From a virus (Duplodnaviria; Caudoviricetes): a stretch of DNA of 64,000 nt. The stretch lies in the IMG/VR virus record IMGVR_UViG_3300028888_001547, positions 42,599 through 106,598 of that record. One strand, 5' to 3'. Positions 1 through 63,012 of the stretch are shown here, in pieces. The position numbers and the translations under genes were made by a program. Position 1 is the stretch's first letter, and the number at the start of each line of letters is the position of its first letter. Below the pieces are notes generated by a model. The model was not told the origin of the DNA. It searched no databases and was given only the letters and a program-made list of their open reading frames with translations.

Positions 1-767
1 TCTGCAGTAGGATTATCTATACCAGCCGCACTCAATTTATTCTTTGCCAACTATCTATAATAATCTGCATATATACTACCATTCCAGCCGGGAGTTTGTC
101 CAGAAGCAATGTCAAGAAGATCTTTTGTAGTAAATCCTAAATAGTCGTATCTTGGATCATACTGCATTCCAAACGATTCAACTCCAGCTTTATCCAACAT
201 GTGAGCTGTTCTGTTATTATACCAAGATTCTGTAAGCTCTTTAAGCGTTTTTACTTCTGCTGGAGATGTTCTATCCCATATTCCATTTCCTAGAGTACTC
301 CAATTATCCAATGATCTCCCTTGATTAGCAAAATTCTCAAAATTAGGATCCCACTTACCAGTTGCTTCAAGAATGCCTCTGTTTTTTATATATTCTTTAG
401 CGTTCTCAGCGCTTGTTCTGAGTTTAGCAACTTTACCAACATCAATACTATTGATCATCTGTGCAATAGCAGCACGGCCTTCAGCAGATCTAGTTAAATC
501 GATACCTTTAGAATACGCGTCATTAATGAAATTCCTAATTCTACCTGTAACATTGTTGTTATACCACTCTTGATCAGCAAGAATAGGAGTAATAAAATCA
601 CCGTACTCCTTCTTGAATTCCTTCATATCTTGAAGTCCTTGCTGATAATCCGCATAAACAGCATTAAAGTATTTGTCCTAAGCATCTAGGACCATTTTAG
701 CCATTGTTGGATCGAATATTTGCTGTCCTGTATATTCGATCGGCCTTTCATATCCTAAAAATGCCAT
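1..767 (-). CDS. Virion cargo/ejection protein (partial, runs off window; TAG=Gln)
   Basis: ATG at 767 (MAFLGYERPIEY...) is in frame with ORF 51..626; open to the window edge when TAG is read through; lies downstream of the muzzle and first cargo gene as in crAss-like gene order. Confidence 0.6.
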
Positions 768-769
768 AA

Positions 770-2866
770 TTATTTAAAATTTGAATTAAATGTATACGGT
801 TGATATGTATCATACCAAGGTATATAACTTGGAGTACTATAACGCATCAATGACGACGGAATATTATATTGCAAAGATGGTTGGTACAAAGAATTAGAAA
901 ACATCCGTGGAAGCGACGTATTTAATCTTGGAGCAATATATGGAGATGTTCCAATAGATGCTGTCGCTTTTGTAGATGGTGTTACAGCAGTTGGTGTATT
1001 GTTTCCGTTAAGCCAATTATTTAACCACTACTATTCAATATTTGTTTTTTTATCAATTAATTCCAACTCTTTTTCTTTAAACTTCTACGCCTACTTAAAT
1101 TGACTATAATCCATTTGATCTTTTACAAGATATGGTAAAGGTGCAAATCTATTCTTCCAATTATATGTATCTTTTAAATCCTTTGCACCAACAGCTCTTG
1201 CATATCTATTAAGCTGATCAGTAGCAGTTTGTATACGCATATCTTCCGCATGAGCGTCAGTATTAGCTAATAGTTTTCTAGCAGTTTCTCTTCTTACTCT
1301 ATTGTGTTCGTCTATATTGAGTAGCTGCTTCATTTTTTCATTCAATCCGGTACGATCTGCAGAATCCATCAAAACAGCTCTTCCGCCCATACCGATACCA
1401 GGCATACGGCTAATTGCATATTTGTTTCTAGCAACTTCGTCGTCTATCATATTCATGTAAGGTCTAGAAGGAATCATGTCGCCTAATATAGCGTATGCCT
1501 AATTTCTTGCAGAAGAATAATCCGGTGTTACGAGTGGTGCTTCTGCTGGACGATTTATATCCTTATTGTACTGTTGTGTGGCAGCTAGCATCTATGCTAT
1601 GTTTGGCATAGCCATGAATGCTCTATCCCACCAGCCATCTTTAAGTCTAGGAAGTTTTCCGCATTTATATCCTTTTCCGTTTTTATATTTCATTTGCATA
1701 TCATTCATTGCTTCAAGCGCCACGGATTCATTTCCGCCATTTTTAATATAATCTGAAATTCCGCCTTTGTTTGTCCATACAATAGATCGCGGATCACTTA
1801 TCATTTCTCCAAGTAGCGTTCCTTTTCTTGCTACGTATTCGTCCTTATTATTCTTTTTACCTGGTACTTCTACCTTAAGTCCTCCTAGCTGTACAACTTC
1901 TCCTCCAGATAATCTAGCAACGCCTTTACCGCGCGAATATCCAGGGAGTTTTCCATTAGCCGCACCAAGACTACCAGATTTAGTTCTACCATAAAAACCC
2001 TATTGTGCGTCTTTACTTTTAGCAATGGATTCTGACATACGTCCCTCCATTGTTGTAGCATCGGTAACATCTTGAGCAGCTTGCCTTGTTTCTTCTTCTG
2101 TATCTCCGAATCCAGCAAGATATGCCAATCCTCCAAGAAGTGCTCCTGCTCCTGCTCCAATGGCTGTTCCTACTACTGGAAAAGAACTTCCGGCTGCCAT
2201 TCCTGCCAATGCTCCAGCAGACATACCCGTTCCAATAGAAGACGCTGTAAAATTAAGGTTTCGGCTTGCACGCTAAGCTCTCGCATATTTGAGCTCATTT
2301 CCTAGATTTACACCACCATATTTAGTATACTGATTACCTAAGTCTGTTGTGTATATATTTTTAGTCAATGTATCGCGCATCTAACCAGCACTTCTATGGT
2401 CTTTGTTTGCAGCAAATTGCATACCCATATCAGCAAGACCATATGCTGTGCCTATACCAGCAGTAATACCTCCTAAAGAATTTAATCCAACTTTACTTGC
2501 TGCCTGTCCAACCCCTTTTTGTCCAATTGAATTTATATTTCTTATTACGTTAGAAACATCTCTTACTCCACTTGATGCCAAAGACGCTCCAAATCCAGAA
2601 GCCGCAGTATTCACAGCAGCATTTGCAGCTGGTACAAAACTCTTTAAATTTTTTAAAGTTTCTAAAGCAAACGATGAATTTATTTGAAGCTTATTTAGTG
2701 CACTAGGAATAGTATTCTATCTAGTTGTCTATATCTCAGGATACAGATTCTATCCAGGTGTACTGCTCATCTATTGTCCTCCAATCCCGTAGTTGGGTTG
2801 GTAGCCTAAACTAGTAGGCATTCTTGTTCCCAGCCAATATCTGGGCAATTTATTTTTTCTTTTCAT
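770..2866 (-). CDS. Virion cargo/ejection protein with Gly/Ala-rich transmembrane segments (~698 aa, TAG=Gln)
   Basis: ORFs 2381..2614, 2000..2224, 1592..1804 and 1091..1477 share one frame; ATG 2866, TAA 770; glycine-zipper helices (AGALAGMAAG..GAGAGALLGGLA). Confidence 0.7.
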
Positions 2867-2867
2867 A

Positions 2868-5800
2868 TCAACTATAAGATTGTCTGAATTTAGTTATTAT
2901 GTGTGATATAGTAAGGAATTCTGTTGGATTTGTACTCTTTATATTTACTCTTAGCCATTTACCGCGTATTCTGTTTCCATAACCATCTCCTGTGATATAT
3001 CTAGGTATATTATATATCACATTACCTTCCCTATCAGTATACGGTTCCATATTGCCGCTGAACTCTTTATTTATAATATCGCTTTCAAACGACATTACCG
3101 CTCCTTCTAAGAATGCACTATGATCTACTTGTGTGAAAGCATCTCGTTTAATTGGAATAAACTGCTGAGAATCAAATACTTTTGTTACAGATGCCATTGG
3201 GTTTACAATAAAACTAACAGCCAATGGATATAAATACGAAGTAGCTTGTTCTAGATAGTTATGCTTTTTTATATCAAGTTTTTGATGTTCGTTGTCTACA
3301 GTCAAACCATACAGGTGATTCTTTATATATAACATAAAATCATAACGTCTTGTATATATAGAAGTACCGATATTATACTTTATGTTTAGCACCATCTAGT
3401 CCTAACCTAAACATTTACACAACACTTCGTCGTTTTGTAAATCGTAATCTACATGCGGAACATCTGCCGTTATGTATCGATTTACTAAGTTTTGAATATT
3501 TAGTTGTTCTCCTACATTTATTGCCCTACTTTCTGCAAGTGCCGCAATAGCTTTATTATTTATATCTACCCAGAACACTCCTCCTTCAGTTGTTCTAGCG
3601 CAGAAATCATAAAGACGCATTCCATATCTCGTACTTATATAATCATAACGTGACAATATGCCTGCCTGTCCCAACATTATAGTGTTGCTGTTCTGATCAT
3701 TCACAAGAGAACGTTCATTAACGCTGAACCGTCCGCATGCGTGATCTTGCCAGTAATACAACATGTTCTTATCTGTGAGTAGGTTTGTTATTTGTCCGTA
3801 TTTACTATCTACATCAATAAAAGATGCTGCTTTGAATATAAGGAAGTTATCTATAAACTCACCATTTGTCTTCAAATCAGAGTAATAAGTACGCTACTTA
3901 AAACTATTTGTTTCGTTTTTGTCTGTGCTTATTAATGTAAACACATCATTAGAAGCGTCGTTATCAGAATATATCATGTTATACTGATGAACAGGGCGGT
4001 CTTGTGTAGTAACGCCATCTATTTGCCCAGGTTCATATAACAGATTTTCGCTTTGTGTGTTCATAAGATTCATTCCATAATCAAAATAAGTATTTACTTT
4101 TGATTCAAGAGGAATGTAATTTACAACCTACGTGGACTGGAGTGTATCCATAGAGTTAAAATCATATGCTTTATACATAGTTCCCAACTCATGCGGAGTA
4201 ATATAAACATCTCCATCAAATACAGTTAGTGTTGTATTATCTTTTGGCGTACCATTTGCATTATACGATACATTGAAATAGTTTCCAAACCCGTAATATT
4301 GAGTAAATTCATCAGATTGAACATCACTTGTCTTTGCTTCGTGAGTTATATTGCATATAGAAGTATAGAAGGCACTAGAATTCAATGGGAATAAACCGGT
4401 TTCGTTCTCAGTAGTAAGTAAGAAACAAGATGGTCCCGCACCTATATATCCTATTTTTACAGCCTGATTATCTTGTGTCATTGGATATACAGCAGCTTGC
4501 AACCAGTTTCTATATCTTTTTGTTCTACCGTGCATCTCTGCTGAATTTGGACCATCCCCGTCACTTGTAGTATAGTCCATATTAGCCTGACTTTCTTCTC
4601 CAGGCCTTAAATCATATTTTGCGAATGAGACCCAATTGTTGTACACATAGGAGTCAATATTTGTAGTAAAACTCTTATATTTCTTTATGGCTGTATATAT
4701 ATCTTCATCTTCGTTTCGTTGTACTTCACTAAATGCTGAACTCCATTCAGGTATCTTTACATCTTTTATTTGATTTACGTCCTATGTACCAAAACCAGAG
4801 AACGATCCACCATTTGTTTTATAGAAGTTAAATATCCAATGTCTTGCCTATTTTTTGTCAGACGAAAGCTTTTCTACATAAAGTCTATTTATTCCTATTG
4901 TACCTTCTTGCGAATCATAATCAACAGGAGGTATTCTAGTGTTTACTGTTAATACTGTAGGCTAATATTGAAGATCTACTTTAATTACTATAGATCTATT
5001 TAACGTTGCCGCTTCGTTTATAAAATCGGTTACATTAGAATGTGATATTATGTTGTCAGAAATGCTCATGACAGGACCAGCTACTAAACTATCTGGCTCA
5101 AGTCTCATAAATTGCACGTCTGTTACGTTTGGATCGTCTACACTAAGTAGTATACTTTGAGCAGATGTACTCAATGGGCCAACTGCGAACATGTTTCCTT
5201 TACCCTAAACAACTCCAACATTATATGTTCTTGTCGTTTCTTCTGGAGTATAATACGAAGAATTTGCACTTGCTGTCATTGAGTTTGGAAGTGCTCCGTC
5301 ATATATAGTATCTTTTGTGCTGTTTGTATATTTAGCAAAAACAGAAGATACGTACAGCATTTCTTCTATATTTGTATCAGACGTATTTACTCTGGACAGA
5401 ACATCATTTCTTCTAAAGTCTATTTCAGATGAAAAAATCTAATATAATTTGTGGTTTCGAGTTCTCGCTCTAAGATCTGCATAATATCCAAGGTCCTGGC
5501 CATTTGGTGCAGATACCGTTTTACTATAATAATACGACGGAAAAATATACAACCCGTTAACAGACATAAATCCGCTAGGATAGAAAGGAGATTTTTTTGT
5601 TACACTATCCTATGCATCAGATATTTCTTGTATATTTGTATCAAGTATTGCTTGTGATATTGGTCTAGCTAAAGCAACCTATAGTAATGTTTTTTGATAT
5701 ACTTCTGAAGAAGATCTACGAATAACCTAGCAACCTACAATACTACTTATAGCATCTGGATCACCAGTAAGCGTCGGAAGTTGTATTTTTACTCCAATAG

Positions 5801-7238
5801 GATGGGCCAATAATTTTCCATTTACACATTCAAAAGGACGTGATGTGTTATAATCAGAAATCGCTTTTTCATCTAGACTTATTACATCTGTTCGTCTTCC
5901 TTTATTGTCATAAAATACTAATGCGTATTTATACTTCTCTCCGCGTCGTAAAGATCTTAAGAGACTAGAAGTAATCATATCATTGTAGGAAGCTTTTACA
6001 ATCTAAGGATTTACTCCACGTTCTGTTAAATAACTCAATACGGAAGAACCATCGGAGAAAGTACTATATTCATCTTTATAATAGTGTTTCCCGGGATCAG
6101 GTATATCTCCATCTATTTTATCTGATAATACAACAGTTGCTGTTATTTCACTTATTGACCCAGCTGTACCAAGGCTTACGTTTTTCAGTATTGTATCGTC
6201 TGTAACATTTCCACAAAACATATATTCCTAGTTCTGTTCTATTGTTTGTGGAATAAGTATAAGACCGGACATTGCGGCAAACTCCTCCATTGAAAGTTTT
6301 TGCAGAGGGTCTATACCAATATCGTTTAATACAAAAGAATTGTTTTGGCTTTTTATATCTCCATCGTATATCAAAGATACTTCTGCATCATGTCCGGGTG
6401 TTATATAAGATAGTCTATATACTTGTATTTTTTTATATCTGCTAGAATACCCGGTCATATCTATCGACAACGATAATCCAACGGACGTTTCTGTGTTTTC
6501 AGCATTACCTGTCTCTTTTGATCTAGACGAATCAATAACCTATATCTTATTAGTTAGAGGAGCTAATTGAGTGGTATTACCATATTTATTGTAATATCTA
6601 TATGTGTACTATACCTACTATGTTGTAAGTCTTCCAGATATAATATCTGTTATAACCACCCTCTTGTCTGGTATCTCTCTATTATTTATAAGACTATCAA
6701 TAGGTACAGGAGTTCCGTTCGTTATATAAGGATGATCCTGTTCATCGTCAACTCTTAAACTTATAATAGGGTCTTTACCAGTAGCTATGTATAGTTTTAT
6801 TACGTTTTCAAGCTCTTTATATAATACAGCTGATATCTTCCCTGGAGCATTTCCTTCCCATACACCGTTTGCAAACCAAACCTACTTAAATTCACTGCAT
6901 TCATTGTTAACTTCGTCAACAGTAAATTTCCATACGTGTAAGTCGCTATCATTTGTAGTAACAACAATAGCTAACTGATCTACAGAACATACTGCAATTA
7001 TTCGTTGATTGTTTGATATAGTACCGAGAGAATCTATACTGACGCCACTGGGTACAGGAGTAACAATTCCTTCGTGCACAGAAGAATAGTCACCAGAACT
7101 ACCAAGGAGCTGATTCTTAGTAATTCTAATGTTCTGACCATATATGTATTGCGCGTTGTCTATTTGGTCAAATGCGGTGTCAGAATTCATTCCCTTCGTA
7201 AACGAGTTTATATAGGAATTGTTCTCATTAGTAACCAT
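2868..7238 (-). CDS. Tail muzzle / stabilization protein (P22 gp10-like, ~1456 aa, TAG=Gln)
   Basis: Eight ORF fragments in one frame; N-terminal NSFTKGMNSD..Y..GQNIRI, internal LRRGEKYKYALVFYD and C-terminal RIRGKWL motifs typical of the crAss stabilization protein; TGA at 2868. Confidence 0.8.
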
Positions 7239-8184
7239 AATAGTAGTCGTTATAAGTTAATTGTTCTTTTCCAATATTCTTAAAGAATGTATCATCTCCA
7301 TCCCAATCAGGGATAAGCTTATTCCAATCATTCTTTATATTCTGCATATCATCAGGCGTTGGCATCATACATTCAGCATATGCCTGATTTCTATAAAAGT
7401 TCCACTGTTGCTGTGTATAATAGTATGTCTGCTGTGCATACTTCTATGCATATTTAGAACTACTAGTAGTAAGCTTACCACTCATAAACTTAGGGAACGT
7501 AAGCTTCATTACAACATACCAGTAAACTGCTTCCTAGAATGAAGGGAGGTCTGGAATAAGAGGATAACCTCTCTCATCTACTGCTATAGCTTTATATGAA
7601 AGCCGTATGAATCCGTGTCTCTTATTTGTTACAATCCAACCAGGTTTAATGAAATACTCAGGTTTATCTAAGTGATTTGGCAACCATTTGTTTGCATACC
7701 TCATTCCATTATACATGTATAGTTGATGCTATGAAGTAGGTAACTTGTACATCATAGGCTGGTGTGGAGGTGGTGGCATTGGCATAGGATCTGGTACAAT
7801 AGCAGGTTCCTGTATTGCCAAGTTAGCCGGATCGTGCATAACAGTAGCTGTGGGATGCGGGTGTGGATGAGGATGTTGCTTAGACTTAAATATCCTTGTC
7901 ATTGTACTCATCGGCTACCAGTGCACTCCATCTTTACTATATGCTACACCATCCAGAGACACTAAATCTTCTGGGATAGGAACCTAATAGTCTTGTATCT
8001 TTAGAATAGGTAAATCATCTGTCCCAGATTCTCTTGTGATATACTACATAGGAGCACCAATCTTTTCCACGGCTTCAAAAATCCACTCTCGTATATCTGT
8101 AGTACGCTGTTTCGCTTCTGTGGAATCCAAATCAGCCATGATTTTTGCTATGACTGATTCACACTTTGTATATTTGTATATCAT
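7228..8184 (-). CDS. Tail tubular / ring protein (~318 aa, TAG=Gln) with His/Pro-rich insert
   Basis: ATG 8184 (MIYKYTKCESVIAKI..EWIFEAVEKIG) joins ORFs 7729..7911 and 7534..7716; YKAIAVDERGYPLIPD motif; TAA 7228. Confidence 0.75.
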
Positions 8185-8602
8185 TTATATCTATATAATC
8201 GTGTTTATTAAATATTAGTTGAGCTAATCTGCGTTTATTCTATCTTACTAAACATAACTGATATTTGTATCTATCAGGGAATGTTCTAGGTATCTTAGAC
8301 CAGTATAGTCTATATTTATACCCATTAGAATGTTCATTCAAATGATAGATACGTTTATCATATTCTTTACTCGCTTTATAGTCCACAGATAACGAATCTG
8401 GAGTAAGCGTCTTGGGTCTATATTTACCCACCTAAATAAAACCTAGCCCATAAGGCATTTTAAAGCCGTCTGAGCGCTCTAACACGTATTCTAGAATAAC
8501 TTTACACATCTCGTCTAAAATGCGCTTGTAGAGGCTGTAATCAACCTCTACGGGCATTGTACGATACATGTCTCTAAACGTTAGCGATTGTTTACTTCTC
8601 AT
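8159..8602 (-). CDS. HU/IHF-like DNA-binding protein (~147 aa, TAG=Gln)
   Basis: ATG 8602; FKMPYGLGFI(Q)VGK and HLNEHSNGYKYRLYWSK motifs like crAss IHF-subunit homologues; TGA 8159. Confidence 0.65.
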
Positions 8603-9335
8603 CTTCCTTTGGTCCGTCAGGCTTTATACCGTCCAGCGTAGAGTTGTTATCATCATCGCTAGGTCTATTGAGCATAAATGCAAGCTCATTGTTCATTATA
8701 AGCTTTTTGATATCGGGAACCATCCATGTAGGAATCTGTATATCATCCTCGTCTGGATCTTCCACGCTATCTTCGTCTGCGTCATCTTCCGGCTTCTCAT
8801 ATACAGCTAGAACGTAGATATAATCAAGGAGTCCTTGATCCTGTAAACCTTGTACATATACATGCTTATCGTCCATATAATAGGCGGTCAGTTCCCCAAA
8901 CGTATACTTGCGGAAGTACTGATAGTGTCTACGAATATGATTCATATACTAAATATTCTCGCCGGCCTCATCGTGCACAGCAAGAATACTAGTCCATTTG
9001 TTTCCGTATATGTTTTCTAGAGTATCTTCGGTTTTTTTGGTAAACAAGTTTCTACCTTTATCCTCAGATTCTACAGGTATAAGCTTATGCTTAGTCTCCT
9101 TCAAAAATAAGAATTCACCGTCTATTAGATCGGTAATATCCATTCCAGCCTACTCCTTAGCTTCAACCTCATCCAGGTGTTTCTTCCACAGCATCCTGCG
9201 ATAATGATCAATCCAGGCTGCTATGTGTGCTCTTGAGAAGTCCTCGCTTTCGCTTATATTACTATTTCTAGCTATGAGAAGTATATCATCAATAATCTCT
9301 CTAAGAGATGTTTTCTATGGTGAAATCTTGCTCAT
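8592..9335 (-). CDS. Neck/tail ring protein (~247 aa, TAG=Gln)
   Basis: ATG 9335 joins ORFs 8949..9143 and 8592..8945; SLREIIDDILLIARNSNISESEDFSR N-terminus; position in tail module. Confidence 0.65.
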
Positions 9336-9336
9336 T

Positions 9337-10002
9337 TTATTTTGTTGTTGATTCAACTATTCTTATGTTATTGCTCTTAAGTAGCTCATTAGTATTATAG
9401 TTAACATACTTACGTTTTTCTACTTTCTTCCAATCCCATGTGAATAGTCTCTTTATGAAGTTCTTTTTGTTCTTATACTCTTTAGTAGTATAGATATATA
9501 AATACTGCTCATTCTGTATATCTAAGCCTATATTTACAGTATCTCTACCAATAGTATAGTAGACGGTAGTAAGATCATTATACTTTAAAGAATCAGTATA
9601 AGTAGTATCTTTTAGTATAGTTACTAAGTCACCCCCTACCCCCTTACTATCATTAACGTTTAAAACCTGAGATTGCGTTGCAGCAGTTAAAATAGATTTT
9701 GATTTAAGTTTTAACTTATTTCTTATACTATCTAACTTATGTAACGTAATATCGTTTTGTCTCTCTAATTCTTTTATGTCTAGCCTTAAAACATTATTAG
9801 CCTACTAGGAGCTATCTAATAACCCCTAATAGGCTTCAATGTTGTTCTGAGCCATTTCTAGCTCCTGTGACAGCTTTATATTGCTTCTGTGGGTATTTAT
9901 ACCCCACAACAGTAAAAACGCAACAGAAGCCACGCAAATGCCCTTAACGGCCATCTTCCAGTGGTTCTTCAGCCACAGGAGTGTCGTTAGTATGTTCATC
10001 AT
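9337..10002 (-). CDS. Putative spanin/Rz-like membrane protein (~221 aa, TAG=Gln)
   Basis: Missing from ORF track because of 3 TAGs; N-terminal TM segment (GICVASVAFLLLWGI) followed by coiled coil; overlaps the holin 3' end; TAA 9337. Confidence 0.55.
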
Positions 10003-34708: not shown

Positions 34709-34811
34709 CGCGTGGTGACGGAATCGAACCGCCAACAGGTGCCTCCTTCACTTGCCGCCACAACGCGTTTGCAAGCACTTGTCTCCCGCTTTACCATTAA
34801 GCTAACCACGC
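34709..34811 (-). ncRNA. tRNA-like RNA with enlarged, non-canonical anticodon arm
   Basis: Acceptor GCGTGGT/ACCACGC, D arm AGCTTAATGGTAAAGC, T arm GGCGG-TTCGATT-CCGTC; central region of ~50 nt. Confidence 0.6.
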
Positions 34812-51510: not shown

Positions 51511-51569
51511 ATACTGTCCCAGTGTAGACGCTGGCTGATGAGTCTTGGAAGATTAAGACGAAACAGTAT
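51511..51569 (+). ncRNA. Hammerhead ribozyme (type III)
   Basis: ATACTG-TC^-CCAGTG-TAGA-CGCTGG-CTGATGA-GTCTT-GGAAGATT-AAGAC-GAAA-CAGTAT: full core and three stems; cleavage predicted after C51518. Confidence 0.9.
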
Positions 51570-52033
51570 TGTTTAACCCTTTAAACTTAGACCTATCATT
51601 ATGGGCAGCCAATTGTCCGTACTGAATTGGCATCAAACATCATCAATTTATTATTTATGTAAAGTTGAGGGTGTATGATTTGACCATTGTACACTCTGGT
51701 TAAACAACAAAACAAATTGCACACACTTATCACCGCTTCACGGTGATGTAGGCTAAACACATCTTGGTCAACACTGAAAGACCAGTGTAGATGTGTGACA
51801 GCAAACGTAAACGTTTGTATGCCTGTGTGTGCTAGTCTCGCTTGCATGACAATAAAATGAACTTGGTTAGTCATTAGGAGCAAGCTAAATGCAAATGGGA
51901 GAGCGATGCTGGTCTGTACTCAGCAACTCTCCCGCTTTTTATACCACTCTGGAATTCGAGCTAACTTGATCTCGTAATAACTTAAGAGTCCGTAAGGTGA
52001 GTGGTATTTAAGTGAAATCAATCACAACAAGAT

Positions 52034-52198
52034 ATGAGTACATTAGATGAACTCAATGCACTCTTGGACGAGATATTGCCCGAGTTTGCAGGTTGCTCAG
52101 CTGACCAAATAGCTGAAGTCTCTCGCGTTGCTAATGAAGATGAGCGTCGTCAACGCTTATCTGGTTATGACCCAATCTCTAAAATACCAGTGGCATGA
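52034..52198 (+). CDS. Small early protein (54 aa)
   Basis: ATG after a GAAATCAATC leader; TGA overlaps the next ATG. Confidence 0.55.
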   Translation: MSTLDELNALLDEILPEFAGCSADQIAEVSRVANEDERRQRLSGYDPISKIPVA

Positions 52199-52419
52199 AA
52201 GCAGTATTTATAATTACTGCTCCATACGCAGTAAAAGAGACAGCAAAGATTTTGATGCCTTTTAATAAAACAAAAAGAAAAGGCATTGAGATTTTATATG
52301 ATGATTTTGGTGTAATTATCAAAATGTCATTGCACTATGGTTGCGTATGTAATGTATTACGCAACTATAAACAATTTGTCAAAGCCTCACCAGTACACTG
52401 GCGTTGGCTTGGCGAATAA
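52195..52419 (+). CDS. Small early protein (74 aa)
   Basis: ATGA-coupled ORF. Confidence 0.55.
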   Translation: MKAVFIITAPYAVKETAKILMPFNKTKRKGIEILYDDFGVIIKMSLHYGCVCNVLRNYKQFVKASPVHWRWLGE

Positions 52420-52429
52420 ACCTTTAAAC

Positions 52430-53650
52430 CTACACCCGACATGTCCAAAGTAGTCGGCACGGATAATTACGTGAATGGTGATGGAAGGCAGGCTTCTTGT
52501 CTTTAGAATAAAGCAGCAATGCTATAAAGTGCACTCCTTTAGAAAGAGTGTGCGCAGATATGTGCTTTAGCACAGACTCTGTTCATAAGAAAGCTATACT
52601 ATATAAGTATATCTTGGGATACTCGGGCAGAGTTGAAGAGGTATACGGTGGCTCTTGCTAAGCTACCTTGGGTGGTAACACCGACAATATATAGTATAAT
52701 CATACTCCAGAGGATTGCCAGTCCAATAGAGTGTGTAATCTATTAGTAATATCCTATTCATCAACCAATGGTGAACTCCAGCTGGTTACTTGAGTCAGAA
52801 ATGGTAGGATAAATAAAACTATTAGAAATGAGTAGTCTTGGCAGACGAAAATAGGAAGGTGTTGCACCTGGGCTGGTCAAAAGCCAGTATGGTGACAAGC
52901 ATGGCCACATCTTCCAAGCAGAGCTCTAGTTATCTATTTTTAGGCGAAAGCCCCACAAAAAGTATTTAACAAAAAGCAAAAGTGCTATGCACTCTCGTAT
53001 GAAAATACGGTTGTTCTGCTGTAATACACAGATTGTGTGAGTACCGCAAGGAAAGCACAAAGGTGAAATCAAACTTATCTGGTTTCAGGATGGTATCCTG
53101 TTAAGCTACCAAAGCGCCATGAGTGAGAAATTAATCTACATAATGCGAGAGTAGTTCTTGCGACTTCTTTCTAGAAGCCGTCCGTATGCTATCTACCTGA
53201 TAAAAACAGGTGTGTGGATACTCTAAAAGGAGTGGAAAAGATAGTACAAAAGGTCAACACTCAGCCTTTTATTTAACGAAATAATTGATTTACACCCCAA
53301 TATAGCCTAATTGTAGTAGTAGGGAAGAGCCGTGAGATTAACCTTCCAAGACTACAAACCTTCAGACAGCACGTGATGCTGTTATTTCATAGCTTCCGAG
53401 ATAAGCACGGAACATATGATAAAAGACAGGTGGCAAGAAATGCACGGATTAGCTTGAGAGTGTAGCGAGGCATTAAGGGTACAGCCAAACTCTCCGTCAA
53501 AGTGATGCACGCCACTGCATCCACGTTCTTGGGAAGGCAAACGCACAGGTATAACATGTAGATATCGAAAAGGATTGCTCGCCACCAATAGGTGATAGAG
53601 CGCGAAGAGAGTCCTTGCGATTCGAATTGTATGCCTGTGCATTTTTATTT
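52430..53650 (+). ncRNA. Candidate large structured ncRNA(s)
   Basis: ~1.2 kb without a credible ORF; many stems and GNRA-type tetraloops on the plus strand. Confidence 0.5.
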
Positions 53651-53677
53651 GAATCAATCACCAAAATAACTAAATAT

Positions 53678-53872
53678 ATGAGGAGAAGATTCAATCCAAA
53701 CGCAGTTGCCTCATCAACAGGTGACTACACTCGTGTATCACACGACCGTAAGGCTGGTACAACTGGCCGTAGAGTTAAGAATGTGTTCGCAAAATGCGGG
53801 CTAATAAAAATAGCTGTCACGCCACGACAAGCTATGATGCTCGCATCTTATCAGCGCATCGAAAGACTCTAA
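53678..53872 (+). CDS. Small basic early protein (64 aa)
   Basis: Likely ATG 53678 (MRRRFNPN). Confidence 0.55.
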   Translation: MRRRFNPNAVASSTGDYTRVSHDRKAGTTGRRVKNVFAKCGLIKIAVTPRQAMMLASYQRIERL

Positions 53873-53941
53873 ACTATACAGTATCGCTGGATGTCAGTAT
53901 ACTGTGTTTAATTGAAATCAATTCATCAAAACAACATATTT

Positions 53942-54214
53942 ATGGCAAAGGTATTTGTATTTCAGACATGTGACAAAGATTATACTAACAGATTGGTAGA
54001 TAGATTAGTCACAAACGTAAAAGACGGTTATGAATGGATTCGCAAAACAGCTTATCCGTATTATAACTGGAGTTTCCAAACAACATGTGGAGAAAATGTG
54101 GAAGAACCGTCTCAAGAAATGGCGGAATACTATCACATCCTCAAAATGATTGGAAAAGATAAAAAAGGCAATGAATGCTGTCATGTATTGATAGAGCATC
54201 GCAACATTTACTAA
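53942..54214 (+). CDS. Early hypothetical protein (90 aa)
   Basis: ATG 53942 after a repeated leader. Confidence 0.6.
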   Translation: MAKVFVFQTCDKDYTNRLVDRLVTNVKDGYEWIRKTAYPYYNWSFQTTCGENVEEPSQEMAEYYHILKMIGKDKKGNECCHVLIEHRNIY

Positions 54215-54268
54215 AATGTAAAGTCCCACCGCGTTAAAGAGTGGGACGGAGTGATGCCTAGACTCCAC

Positions 54269-54296
54269 GGCCCGCAATTCCAAGGCGGGCCTTTTT
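54269..54296 (+). terminator. Rho-independent terminator
   Basis: GGCCCGC-N9-GCGGGCC-TTTTT. Confidence 0.7.
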
Positions 54297-54318
54297 ATTG
54301 GAATCAATTCTTACAATT

Positions 54319-54771
54319 ATGTGTTTATATACAAAACAAATATGCCCTATAAAGGCACGAAAAACAATTGTATGTTACAAGGTCGTAAAACGACGCAAAC
54401 ATGCAACAGGAGAAAAGAAGTATAGGACACCATGCATGAAAAAACCACTAAAACTTCATGGACTAATATATCCATCACCTATTACTTCATGGGATAAAAT
54501 CCATGAAAAAGATATATACATAGGAGAAGGTAAATGGATTAATGTTCGTGAAGTAAATGGAGGATGGATTCATGCATGTAATACACTCGATGATGCTAAG
54601 TTGTGGTTAAAAAAGAATTATCATCTGTTTAATCATAATAAAAAGCAACCATTTCATTGGGCTATAATCGAGTGTGTCGTATATAAAGGTGTTCTATATT
54701 ATCGTTCGTTTGACAAGCATACTCTGTGTGCTAAAGAACTCTTCACAAGAAAAATAGTGTTACAAGGTTAA
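54319..54771 (+). CDS. Early hypothetical protein (150 aa)
   Basis: MCLY..A...IVCYKV..GGWIHA..IIECV..KG.LYY pattern. Confidence 0.65.
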   Translation: MCLYTKQICPIKARKTIVCYKVVKRRKHATGEKKYRTPCMKKPLKLHGLIYPSPITSWDKIHEKDIYIGEGKWINVREVNGGWIHACNTLDDAKLWLKKNYHLFNHNKKQPFHWAIIECVVYKGVLYYRSFDKHTLCAKELFTRKIVLQG

Positions 54772-54808
54772 CACTATAACTTGAAATCAATTCTAAAACA
54801 ACATATTT

Positions 54809-54985
54809 ATGGCAAAAGGTATTAAAGGTGAGGATATACTACCTCATACGTATGTAAAACAGTTCAAACAGAAATTACAGCTGTTTGTGGACATGTGTAA
54901 TGTCGCACTATCGTGCGATGAAGACTCTGAAAGGGCCAATGGCTTCATCAAGAAAATAATGGAAGATCATAATTTCAAACCATGA
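54809..54985 (+). CDS. Small early protein (58 aa)
   Basis: ATG 54809 after a leader nearly identical to that of 53942. Confidence 0.55.
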   Translation: MAKGIKGEDILPHTYVKQFKQKLQLFVDMCNVALSCDEDSERANGFIKKIMEDHNFKP

Positions 54986-55320
54986 AGAAGTCAATTATCT
55001 CTCTCATTCCAACAGCAGCAGGTCTGTTATTAGGATGCTATGTTATGTATGTTTTAAGTGCTTTAATTCAATAGAATATGACGTATAAGAAACAAACAAT
55101 CAATGTAGCAGGAACAGAGTATGTCAGCGAGGTAACTCGTTGGCCAGGTCACAAATATATCAATAACATTCCAGTATGGAAAGGATAATGGTAGATGTTG
55201 TGGCAAATGGCATAGCATGTGTAATCATGCTAGTCGTAATAATAGTCATATGGACAGCATGCCATGTAGACGATTCTTCTAACACCTAAGCAAGTGTCTA
55301 AACTGCTACACTAGAGTAGC

Positions 55321-55527
55321 ACTACGTGTAAATGTAGCCTGATTAACGAATAATTTGTACGTACTTCGTATAATCAGTTGGTTCCAAGCCCATACTAATC
55401 AATGACAAGGTGTGTGAAACAGAATAAATATTTAAACAACACAAATATCAGTTCTAAACTGTGTAGAATTAATACGCGCAAAGTTTGTGTATGGCACCTC
55501 GAGAAGAATACAGTAGGAACACGTGGT
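55321..55527 (+). ncRNA. Twister-like ribozyme with large insertion
   Basis: P1 ACTACGTG/CACGTGGT, P2 TGTA/TACA, P3 CTGATTA/TAATCAG, P4 TGG/CCA, T1 TTCC/GGAA, T2 GC/GC; one extra nt on each side of L1. Confidence 0.6.
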
Positions 55528-55572
55528 AAAGGGGAGGAGGGACTTCACAGTCTGCCTCCCCAATTATAATTA

Positions 55573-55639
55573 AACACATTTAATGCGACCAATAATGACG
55601 GTGACAAGTCCGAAGAGAGAACGCAGAGTCAAATGTGTT
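55573..55639 (+). ncRNA. Twister ribozyme (type P1)
   Basis: P1 AACACATT/AATGTGTT, UAA, P2 TGCG/CGCA, P4 CGG/CCG, T1 TGAC/GTCA, T2 AC/GT, conserved GA. Confidence 0.8.
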
Positions 55640-56163
55640 AGCTATGCAGGTATACTCAACAGCATAGCGCTAAACGAACATTGAGTTACACATATTTATG
55701 TACGCTTACATTTATGTGGCAAATCAGAAGCCCGCGGTAATGGGCGTGAAATTCTGACATGTGAATAGACGAACTAGATTCACAAAATGACTTTAAACAG
55801 TGGAATAGTAACTGTTGCTCCGTAGTGAGGTAAGCCCCAAGAGGTGTAACTACCAAAGTGGATGGAAGTCGGTCACAGTCCACCAGATACGCAGAAGCCT
55901 AGGCGTATCAATCGGCAGCTTGAGTTGTACATAGAGCTGCACACGCGTGTGGAGGGCATAATCTAATCAATGGATATGCTCTCCCTTTTATTGAATCATT
56001 TAGTTGTTTTTAGGTGAATAGATTGTTTGTCAGGAACAATCACAACGGTGAGAGAGTATATCAGTACGCAATTTTACTCATATTCAAAGAACTCATGATG
56101 ATTATGCTACAGCGGTAGCACTCTCACCGTTTTTAATAGAAATCAATTCTAAAATTATATAAT

Positions 56164-62275: not shown

Positions 62276-62475
62276 ACATTTAAGGTGATGTTATAAGCGA
62301 TTTGAAGCGTCGTATATCCTTGAGTGGGCCAGCTACCCACAAGAGGCTAGAAAACGCGTCAGAGAGCCTGTAAATAGCCTTAAATTGGATTTTCCAACTG
62401 ATCATTGGGAGATTCAGCTGGGTTGCAGAGTAGTATTAACCATATACTCAATTTGACAAACTGCAACTAAAGAAA

Positions 62476-62750
62476 TCTTAGCGGTCTGAGGTATTTCGTT
62501 CGGACGAGGGTTCGAATCCCTCCGGGTCCACGGCAAGTCCCGAGTTCTATCTGTCACATAGAGCGAATAAGGGGTGACTATCTACGCAGCCCACTCGTAG
62601 GCCTCATGTGGGCATTCCGGGCTCGACAGGATTTTGACGGGCGGAGGAAGTAAAGACGTTAACGCTTTGATATAAAATTAAACGGCGATATGAACATCGT
62701 TGACTATACGGGCCTCAAGGAGGCAGCGTAAAGTCGGTGAAGGCTACCTA
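62476..62750 (+). ncRNA. ssrA: Two-piece (circularly permuted) tmRNA
   Basis: 3' tRNA-like half (GGACGAGGG-TTCGAAT-CCCTC-CGGGTCC-A, ends 62530) precedes the 5' half (GGGCTCGACAGGATTTTGACGG from 62619); G3.U70 pair; tag ORF 62684..62731 GDMNIVDYTGLKEAA-TAA; outer boundaries approximate. Confidence 0.85.
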
Positions 62751-62759
62751 AGTGCCTGA

Positions 62760-62817
62760 GAGTGAAAAGGAGACACTGGATTAACTCCAGGGTGGGTTCG
62801 ACTCCCACCATCACTCC
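62760..62817 (+). ncRNA. Truncated tRNA-like element
   Basis: GAGTGA/TCACTC stem, CTGGA-TTAAC-TCCAG hairpin, GGTGGG-TTCGACT-CCCACC T arm; no D arm. Confidence 0.5.
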
Positions 62818-62932
62818 TATGTGATAAAACGTGGACTGGCCAGAAAGAGGGAAAATGACACTTCCAACCTTCATTATCACAGAACATCCTCAGAGACCTC
62901 CAGGCCAGGAGAACATGTGAATCTGAGGATAA

Positions 62933-63012
62933 GGGCCTATAGCTCAATTGGCAGAGCTTGTACTAGTGAAGACTTAAGTGTCTGACGTTGGGTTCGAATC
63001 CCACTAGGCCCA
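62933..63012 (+). tRNA. tRNA-like RNA with irregular anticodon arm (isotype unassignable)
   Basis: GGGCCTA/TAGGCCC acceptor, canonical D arm and T loop, but no 5-bp/7-nt anticodon arm. Confidence 0.55.

Follow-up and report, generated by a model that had tools for sequence, protein, structure and literature searches.

Window positions 52420–53270 (plus strand), in DNA of a phage from sheep rumen, very probably hold the gene for a GOLLD-family RNA, placed in the early-gene region of a crAss-like phage. The window that we analyzed is a 64-kb stretch of DNA, the right-hand part of a 106,598-bp IMG/VR record that CheckV rates as complete, and its source virus is a crAss-like phage with a major head protein 82–83% identical to those of cr272_1, cr124_1, and cr7_1 (Crassvirales, Suoliviridae, Oafivirinae). 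The DNA and RNA runs that contain the 52430–53650 stretch originate from sheep and bovine gut samples. An initial annotation had described this stretch as ORF-free and densely structured and had proposed either a single large RNA, related to GOLLD or ROOL or of a new class, or several RNAs in tandem. We found that the core is a divergent GOLLD member, as indicated by an Rfam match and by covariation, and that it is neither ROOL nor a new class, its structure matching GOLLD. The single 1.2-kb RNA gives way to three parts, namely GOLLD, a small element, and a terminal hairpin (Table 1), and the tandem option is borne out: homology in relatives stops at about 53275, and the last 375 nt contain an independent small element and a terminator-like hairpin.

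Table 1. Window positions of the RNA gene, its parts, and neighboring features
Feature	Position	Strand	Remarks
Hammerhead ribozyme	51511–51569		Rfam match
Upstream 74-aa ORF	52195–52419	+	Stop codon lies immediately before the conserved RNA block
GOLLD-family RNA	52420–53270	+	Conserved unit of ~850 nt; blastn blocks, covariation, Rfam match
5′ domain	52420–52853	+	Helices 1–19; 434 nt; most helices with compensatory changes
3′ domain	52854–53267	+	Full Rfam GOLLD model, positions 1–416; helices 20–36
Variable linker	52916–52972	+	Between the first 3′-domain hairpin and the AAAGCAAAAGU motif
A/U-rich spacer	53271–53306	+	Separates GOLLD from the small element
Small structured RNA element	53307–53501	+	~140-nt core, five helices; own covariance model
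Long irregular hairpin and AUUUUUAUUU	53543–53650	+	Hairpin 53543–53640, −40.9 kcal/mol, followed by a U-run
Downstream 64-aa ORF	53678–53872	+	G002 homologue (L131)
Twister-like match	55577–55635		Rfam match
tRNA genes	59147, 59484, 62933, 63148	Same as GOLLD RNA	5.9–10 kb downstream, not adjacent

GOLLD match, relatives, and unit boundaries

The description of the stretch as ORF-free stood up to inspection: within 52430–53650 the sole plus-strand ORF of at least 40 aa is 43 aa long (52838–52969), and under code 11 the span 52420–53381 (962 nt) is the longest in the whole 106.6-kb genome without an ORF of at least 60 aa, counting both strands. With TAG read as Gln, only short overlapping frames appear in the ORF list, and four frames tested in the tail region (code 11 and TAG=Gln) yielded no significant PHROG or Pfam family. 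MFE z-scores were −3.9 for 52420–53275 and about −3 for the tail, the latter on both strands. The neighboring genes are short plus-strand ORFs with unassigned functions. The upstream 74-aa ORF has no PHROG or Pfam family and is matched, at 73% DNA identity, in the relative G002 only, and is therefore not a conserved partner gene of GOLLD. Downstream, an 85-aa TTG frame from 53615 represents the next gene, whose likely start is the ATG at 53678; a PHROG/Pfam search with the resulting 64-aa ORF gave no function, and 29 nt upstream of it lies TTGAATCAATCA, a motif found repeatedly in front of early genes. A promoter scan found sites no more commonly than in shuffled sequence.

An Rfam search, which the initial annotation had suggested as a check, matched the GOLLD model (RF02032) to the 3′ half of the unit at 85.4 bits, with an E-value of 3.5e-22. 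The window RNA falls below the curated gathering score of 150 bits for RF02032, and at Rfam gathering thresholds the window shows tRNAs only, the GOLLD match appearing with E-value thresholds; the 150-bit cut-off is a curation threshold, and the E-value together with the full-length alignment still indicates homology. Relatives of the window RNA scored 82–118 bits against the same model, and control GOLLD loci taken from the published alignment and searched identically scored 216 (mycobacteriophage PegLeg), 190 (Vibrio phage PG07), and 165 bits (Caulobacter phage phiCbK). At 85 bits against 165–216 for the controls, the window RNA is therefore a clear but distant GOLLD relative. The ROOL model had no match in 52000–54000 at E up to 10. 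The GOLLDs of named phages escape detection by sequence HMMs built from this branch, for the 5′ and the 3′ domain alike, so the covariance model alone links the two, and a blastn search of 52400–53700 against 50,697 phage records returned no match. The Rfam GOLLD search likewise found no match in the five named phages closest by capsid protein (cr272_1, Dulem virus 42, cr124_1, cr7_1, and a Bohxovirus). None of the names in the published GOLLD alignment, which lists eight partial Bacteroides matches, is that of a crAss-like phage, and our literature search found no paper pairing GOLLD with crAss-like phages. The core is a divergent addition to the known GOLLD family, from a phage group without a published GOLLD in the literature searched.

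Using IMG/VR pattern scans, with motifs common to the first relatives found, together with nhmmer, we identified about 25 distinct contigs that carry an RNA of the same GOLLD branch; a first general viral pattern scan had given mostly chance matches, about 7 of its 112 loci being related. The closest relatives belong to same-lineage phages, G001 and G002 (head proteins 88% and 92%), and a further one, G003, to a 178-kb phage from which the crAss-type head protein is entirely absent; more distant copies occur in phages with crAss-type head proteins 26–33% identical. Similarity by blastn extended over 52421–53272 in G001 (91%), over 52421–52460 and 52471–53286 in G002 (85%), and over 52419–53276 in G003 (78%). 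It thus starts at 52419–52421 and ends at 53272–53286 despite differing flanks, which sets the unit at about 52420–53270, or 850 nt. The A/U-rich spacer that follows has no homologue in the relatives.

These boundaries weigh heavily on the reading that all of 52430–53650 is one giant RNA of a new class, which we regard as highly improbable. The ORF-free stretch is uninterrupted and has one terminator-like hairpin at its end, and an RNA contig of run X2 (53029–53352) crosses the GOLLD 3′ end and the spacer, so that some read-through may occur. However, homology in G001, G002, and G003 stops at the GOLLD end with the next gene directly after it, the core matches a known family, and the tail element, found 1.2 kb upstream of GOLLD in contig L168, is hence independent of it.

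Secondary structure and comparison with env-38 GOLLD

We examined covariation in an alignment of 14 non-identical sequences with 44–92% identity. De novo, RNAalifold predicted 142 pairs, of which 103 are compensatory, and recovered the Rfam helices; with RIBOSUM scoring it predicted 187 pairs in 36 helices, 129 of them compensatory. In the latter structure 91.3% of cells are paired, against 35–47% when the 3′ partners were slid by 1–3 columns, and the 129 compensatory pairs compare with 47–56 in the slid controls. A match to a decayed intron or gene was among the refuting outcomes named by the initial annotation. The reading of the region as a decayed intron or pseudogene, with stems that arose by chance in A/T-rich DNA, has in its favor the MFE z-scores of −3 to −4, which are just moderate. 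We nevertheless give this explanation next to no credence: none of 500 shuffles matched the observed values on any measure, the four tail frames tested lack a protein-family match, and neither an intron nor any other additional family was detected in the stretch by Rfam, even with E-values of up to 10 admitted.

The 17 helices of the 3′ domain match the Rfam GOLLD consensus nearly one-to-one, and compensatory changes occur in most of them. A long first hairpin with a UCAAAAG loop is followed by a 10-bp core-closing helix, the UUCUGCUGUAAUA hairpin, a CGCAA-loop hairpin, and a three-way sub-domain, and the domain closes with a two-hairpin sub-domain and then a terminal hairpin ending CUCAGCC. 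Helix 32, a hairpin that follows the core-closing helix, was obtained with RIBOSUM scoring only and is the least well paired, at 74.5% of cells. The UCAAAAG loop, AAAGCAAAAGU, the CGCAA loop, and the terminal CUCAGCC hairpin are invariant or nearly so among the 14 sequences, and the UCAAAAG, AAAGCAAAAGU, and CUCAGCC motifs align to the same GOLLD model positions in the window match. The linker differs in sequence and length in each of the four closest relatives; in the window phage it holds a small hairpin and no tRNA.

The 5′ domain covaries independently of the 3′ domain. It comprises a leader hairpin (CCGAC...GTCGG, 52436–52457), a hairpin with an invariant GCCUUC loop, a GGAUAAA/UAUAAAGUG motif, an invariant AGAAAU loop, and a GUAA/GAAA hairpin at 52671–82, as well as a long-range helix that the automatic fold missed because of the alignment register. 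This helix, TATACTATATA/TATATAGTATA (52595–52605 with 52688–52698), spans 9–11 bp and forms in all 14 relatives with differing sequences.

The long-range helix was among the stems and loops listed by the initial annotation, all of which are present and most of which proved to be conserved helices. The stem GCACTC/GAGTGT (52531/52546) is a covarying helix (helices 4–5 of the RNAalifold consensus with RIBOSUM scoring), GGAAGGTGT/ACATCTTCC (52854/52907) is the helix with which the Rfam GOLLD model begins, and GCACAGGTATA/TATGCCTGTGC (53543/53630) forms the base of the long hairpin at the end of the stretch. The GTAA loop in the hairpin at 52671–82 is replaced by GAAA in some relatives, and the loop CC-GCAA-GG (53034–41) is the conserved CGCAA loop of GOLLD. 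The motif that had been called rRNA-like is indeed present, its identity being that of this same GOLLD CGCAA-loop hairpin, and GGC-GAAA-GCC (52943–52952) is present too, as part of the variable linker, but the closest relative lacks it.

The two-domain organization could also be explained if only the 3′ half were GOLLD-like and the 5′ 430 nt were a separate RNA or structured leader that is adjacent by chance. Some accepted GOLLDs seem short of room for a 5′ domain, as in PegLeg, where the 3′ domain is immediately preceded by a CDS and tRNAs, and the 5′ domain of the window RNA has no sequence similarity to the regions upstream of canonical GOLLDs. We nonetheless consider this very unlikely: every full-length locus of the subgroup, that of the unrelated 178-kb phage included, has the two domains side by side in one fixed order, an RNA contig of run X13 (52503–53232) spans both, and the published description of the family is of a conserved 3′ region with a less conserved 5′ region. 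An HMM of the 5′ domain detected about 20 loci, every one adjoining a 3′ domain.

The cryo-EM structure of env-38 GOLLD is a protein-free homo-14-mer cage with D7 symmetry (Kretsch et al., Nature 2025, PMC12286853). The env-38 RNA is 833 nt long, with a 5′ domain at nt 1–420, a 3′ domain at nt 421–833, and a disordered linker at nt 497–538; its UCAAAAG loop makes the A-minor bridge B6, and A34/A35 of a GAAA loop make the sole inter-chain contact between 5′ and 3′ regions, B1 (PMC12286853). The window RNA resembles GOLLD in its length of about 850 nt, in its division into a 5′ domain and a conserved 3′ domain with a variable linker after the first 3′-domain hairpin, the linker corresponding to the disordered linker of env-38, in being phage-encoded with a tRNA cluster downstream on the same strand, and in keeping the UCAAAAG, AAAGCAAAAGU, CGCAA, and terminal-hairpin motifs. 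GOLLD genes belong to phages or prophages, often close to tRNA islands. The window RNA differs in several respects. Primary-sequence similarity to canonical members is not detectable; no tRNA lies inside or adjoins the RNA, whereas the linker of phiCbK GOLLD contains a tRNA-Gly; and self-cleaving ribozymes occur nearby, some relatives having a pistol ribozyme directly at the 3′ end. In addition, the 5′ domain is lineage-specific, with the invariant GCCUUC loop in place of the GAAA loop that makes the B1 contact in env-38, so some of the cage contacts may have been lost. When we mapped the inter-chain contact residues of env-38 onto the window RNA, the L14 A-rich loop could be placed, B1 tentatively, and B7–B10 not reliably.

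By eye, the window RNA, env-38, and the region upstream of the PG07 3′ domain have in common a small hairpin, GGAUAAA(A)GU, and a further hairpin; other such landmarks are a GAAA-loop hairpin near the end of the 5′ domain and CUUGG before the 3′ domain. These few landmarks, which include GGAUAAAGUG followed by a hairpin, the GAAA-loop hairpin, and CUUGG, are no more than possible signs of homology between the 5′ domains of the window RNA and env-38. ROOL is likewise a large, ornate RNA of rumen phages that lies near tRNAs, and cage formation is a feature of ROOL; the window RNA, however, lacks a ROOL model match, and its structure fits GOLLD.

The small element and the terminal hairpin

The small element is the sole part of the region without precedent. 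Rfam contains no family that matches the window element (E up to 10) or its compact copies (E up to 1). The window copy carries an insertion of ~60–80 nt in a variable hairpin (53357–53437); elsewhere the element has a different upstream flank, and 53357–53437 is replaced by 4 or 18 nt. A word from this alternative flank led to three metagenome contigs (L168, L169, and L170), in which the compact copy is 141–142 nt long. In L168 the copy shares its strand with a GOLLD of this branch (117 bits) and precedes it by ~1.2 kb; RAGATH-1 hammerheads, a RAGATH-12-like match, and a tRNA cluster surround the two. The element is therefore a stand-alone module within RNA islands of this kind.

From two compact copies we built a five-helix covariance model, R1, which scores the window element at 93.7 bits (E 2e-19) and assigns a 62-nt insertion to its variable hairpin; R1 matches in L138 and L139 (15 bits) and in L232 (18 bits) were discarded as chance. 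In the small element, 91 of 91 cells are paired and 6 of 24 pairs are compensatory, against 0–1 in slid controls; two further compensatory pairs, both in the first helix, come from L228, a rumen MAG contig with a truncated copy. When the window, L168, L169, and L228 are compared, four of the five helices show compensatory changes. The 15-nt loop of the element is invariant, and its CCGUG is a candidate to form a pseudoknot with an invariant CACGG after the variable hairpin.

Homologues of the tail were found neither in the genomes G001–G005 nor in any fetched GOLLD locus. Exact-word scans of viral sequences gave 0 matches in one case and 2 chance matches in coding DNA in another, the first metagenome word gave 0, and a word scan of genome contigs gave 69, of which L228 alone was real. 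With only five sequences, all from rumen material, we class the element as a candidate for a new motif, not as an established motif. These findings also feed the alternative that 53276–53650 is functionless DNA, an insertion remnant or a decayed small gene, and not an RNA gene. The closest relatives lack the tail, just five homologous sequences turned up for 53307–53501, X2 has no RNA cover at 53414–53564, and a 91-aa minus-strand frame exists at 53382–53657. We consider this alternative unlikely, though worth weighing: the five helices are kept in all four copies compared, the 15-nt loop is invariant and so is the segment with which it may form a pseudoknot, the middle hairpin shows the length variation typical of optional stems, the frames have no protein-family match, and related copies occur in RNA contigs of two bovine studies at depths of 52–81.

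Read as an RNA, the small element shares with pistol, hammerhead, twister, and RAGATH RNAs the genomic setting of phage RNA islands, although it has no recognizable hammerhead, twister, or pistol core. In relatives L080 and L132 a pistol ribozyme begins 5 nt after GOLLD, and in L056 and L125 one begins 280 nt after. The element occupies the downstream spot where these two groups have pistol and thus might be a new self-cleaving or 3′-end-processing RNA; that it acts as a 3′-end processor in the window phage is speculation. A more far-reaching proposal, which we put forward as a long shot, is that the element is a new functional RNA class tied to the GOLLD islands of rumen phages, one that might cleave itself or process 3′ ends and so define the end of the GOLLD transcript, and, separately, that the crAss-type GOLLD cage might differ in stoichiometry from that of env-38.

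Beyond the small element, the terminal hairpin is 98 nt long (MFE z-score −4.3), well above the usual size of a terminator, and a terminator consensus scan passed over it because its loop is larger than that scan allows. It has no homologue among the relatives' loci. It looks like an intrinsic terminator and is probably the end of the non-coding transcript. As a separate observation, the small-element copy in L168 likewise precedes a short hairpin and U-run.

RNA libraries, proposed mechanism, and significance

GOLLD transcripts are characteristically abundant in lytic growth. Whether the RNA is transcribed had been raised by the initial annotation, and we found the GOLLD part at high depth in RNA libraries. 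In two runs from one sheep-gut metatranscriptome sample, 0.56–0.57 of the sampled query words were present, which is the GOLLD share of the query. In run X2, three contigs identical to the window tile 52486–53352 at k-mer depths of 381, 465, and 187, compared with 3.4, 4.3, and 9.3 for X2 contigs on the flanking ORFs and a flat 13–14 in the probable source DNA run; these are assembled contigs that carry no strand, end, or time-course information, so the levels are rough, and related phages may add to the depth. RNA contigs with GOLLD relatives ~93% identical are present in two bovine studies. X2 has no RNA-contig cover for 53414–53715, and the flanks are uncovered in X13 and X21. We rejected the contig ends at 52486, 52503, and 53352 and the gaps in cover as transcript ends, since the DNA run has the same breaks; the breaks at 52486 and 53352 occur there too, with loose ends that show variant flanks, and are therefore branch points of the assembly graph. 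Together these libraries give good support to the conclusion that the GOLLD RNA is made and accumulates.

We propose that the GOLLD RNA would be transcribed with or among the early genes and would accumulate to high levels in infected cells of its Bacteroidota host, its transcript ending near 53270 or at the hairpin at 53640. The pistol ribozymes that lie 3′ of GOLLD in the two groups of relatives suggest that 3′ ends are often set by processing. By analogy with env-38, the RNA may then self-assemble into a homo-oligomeric shell in which the 5′ domains would serve as caps and the 3′ domains as rings, with the linker facing inward; that the window RNA forms some defined homo-oligomer strikes us as probable, though by no means assured. 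Our best guess for its role during infection would be one related to translation or tRNAs, because GOLLD RNAs are encoded in islands of RNA genes, among tRNAs and ribozymes.

GOLLD RNAs are among the largest bacterial and phage RNAs of unknown function. In 2025, GOLLD was shown to build RNA-only cages (PMC12286853). The known range of this family is widened by the branch described here, which is well populated, covaries strongly, and occurs in crAss-like phages as well as in other large phages of gut and rumen; all members of the branch score below the Rfam cut-off and so go unannotated. The branch provides natural variation for structure-function work, including differing 5′-cap loops, linker inserts, and, in some members, 3′-end ribozymes, and the small element adjoining GOLLD offers a candidate new RNA motif. 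The high depth in rumen metatranscriptome assemblies suggests that the RNA is made in natural communities, and the branch links GOLLD to one of the most abundant groups of animal-gut phages.

Ribozyme matches and RNA-rich stretches flanking GOLLD

A Type III hammerhead match lies upstream of the window's GOLLD, its score slightly below the gathering score of 48.5 bits (Table), and similar hammerheads follow GOLLD at a distance of 0.9-1.9 kb in G001, a phage of the same lineage, and in G003, a 178-kb phage. Immediately 3' of the window's hammerhead, positions 51570-52033 (+) contain no plus-strand ORF of 40 aa. In the assembled contigs of a sheep-gut metatranscriptome (X2), which give rough depth without strand, RNA-contig depth was 985 at 51602-51752 and 396 at 51753-51903, with neighbouring genes far lower, and this stretch may be another stable non-coding RNA. 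When the ORF-free stretches of the genome were ranked under code 11, window 54772-55685 came second in length; it contains a weak twister-P1 match, and RNA-contig depth was raised over 55347-55800. A twister match was also found 1.7 kb past the GOLLD of G002, another phage of the lineage.

Features detected in the window and in related or control loci
Feature	Location	Strand	Evidence
Type III hammerhead ribozyme match	window 51511-51569	+	Rfam, 43.4 bits, E 5e-7
Weak twister-P1 match	window 55577-55635	+	29.6 bits, E 0.003
TGAAATCAATYA or near match	window 52013, 53649, 53913, 54299, 54782, 56138	+	sequence scan
tRNA, 103 nt	window 34709-34811	-	Rfam; absent from ARAGORN list
Candidate permuted tmRNA-like gene, tag peptide GDMNIVDYTGLKEAA	window 62441-62822	+	ARAGORN only
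tRNA	window 62933-63012	+	Rfam; absent from ARAGORN list
Pistol ribozyme	L080 3451-3512	-	Rfam, 55-56 bits (both pistol loci), above gathering score
Pistol ribozyme	L056 4605-4666	+	as above
GOLLD, 78% identical to window's	L164 2902-3761, G003 (178,291-bp virus record)	-	sequence comparison
RNA-gene island, all on one strand	L168 (Ga0247609_10000389) 670-9769	-	Rfam and small-element copy
Control locus: GOLLD with tRNA-Gly, permuted tmRNA	L171 (phiCbK) 989-1475, 1984-2302	-, +	

An early-gene motif and tRNA-type genes

Successive early genes carry exact or near copies of TGAAATCAATYA ~20-30 nt 5' of their start codons, and the window's GOLLD has no such copy in front of it. Although the window-wide count is not above chance, the copies cluster at the early genes (52013-56138), where the motif may serve as an early promoter or translation signal. 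Rfam at gathering thresholds called no tmRNA at the position of the ARAGORN tmRNA-like candidate. Given its length, the minus-strand tRNA may carry an insertion or intron.

RNA neighbours of GOLLD in other phages

In the GOLLD relatives L080/L132, a pistol ribozyme starts 5 nt past the GOLLD 3' end, and in L056/L125 the gap is 280 nt; to our knowledge, this association has not been reported before. On metagenome contig L168, the island starts with a RAGATH-1 hammerhead, which is followed in turn by the small element, GOLLD, another RAGATH-1 hammerhead, a match resembling RAGATH-12 and, last, four tRNAs. The canonical GOLLD of Caulobacter phage phiCbK, our control, holds a tRNA-Gly within the linker; ~500 nt away there is a permuted tmRNA. 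Finally, G003 is a complete phage that lacks a crAss-type major head protein, and its possession of a GOLLD so similar to the window's therefore suggests that the GOLLD gene moves horizontally between unrelated phages.
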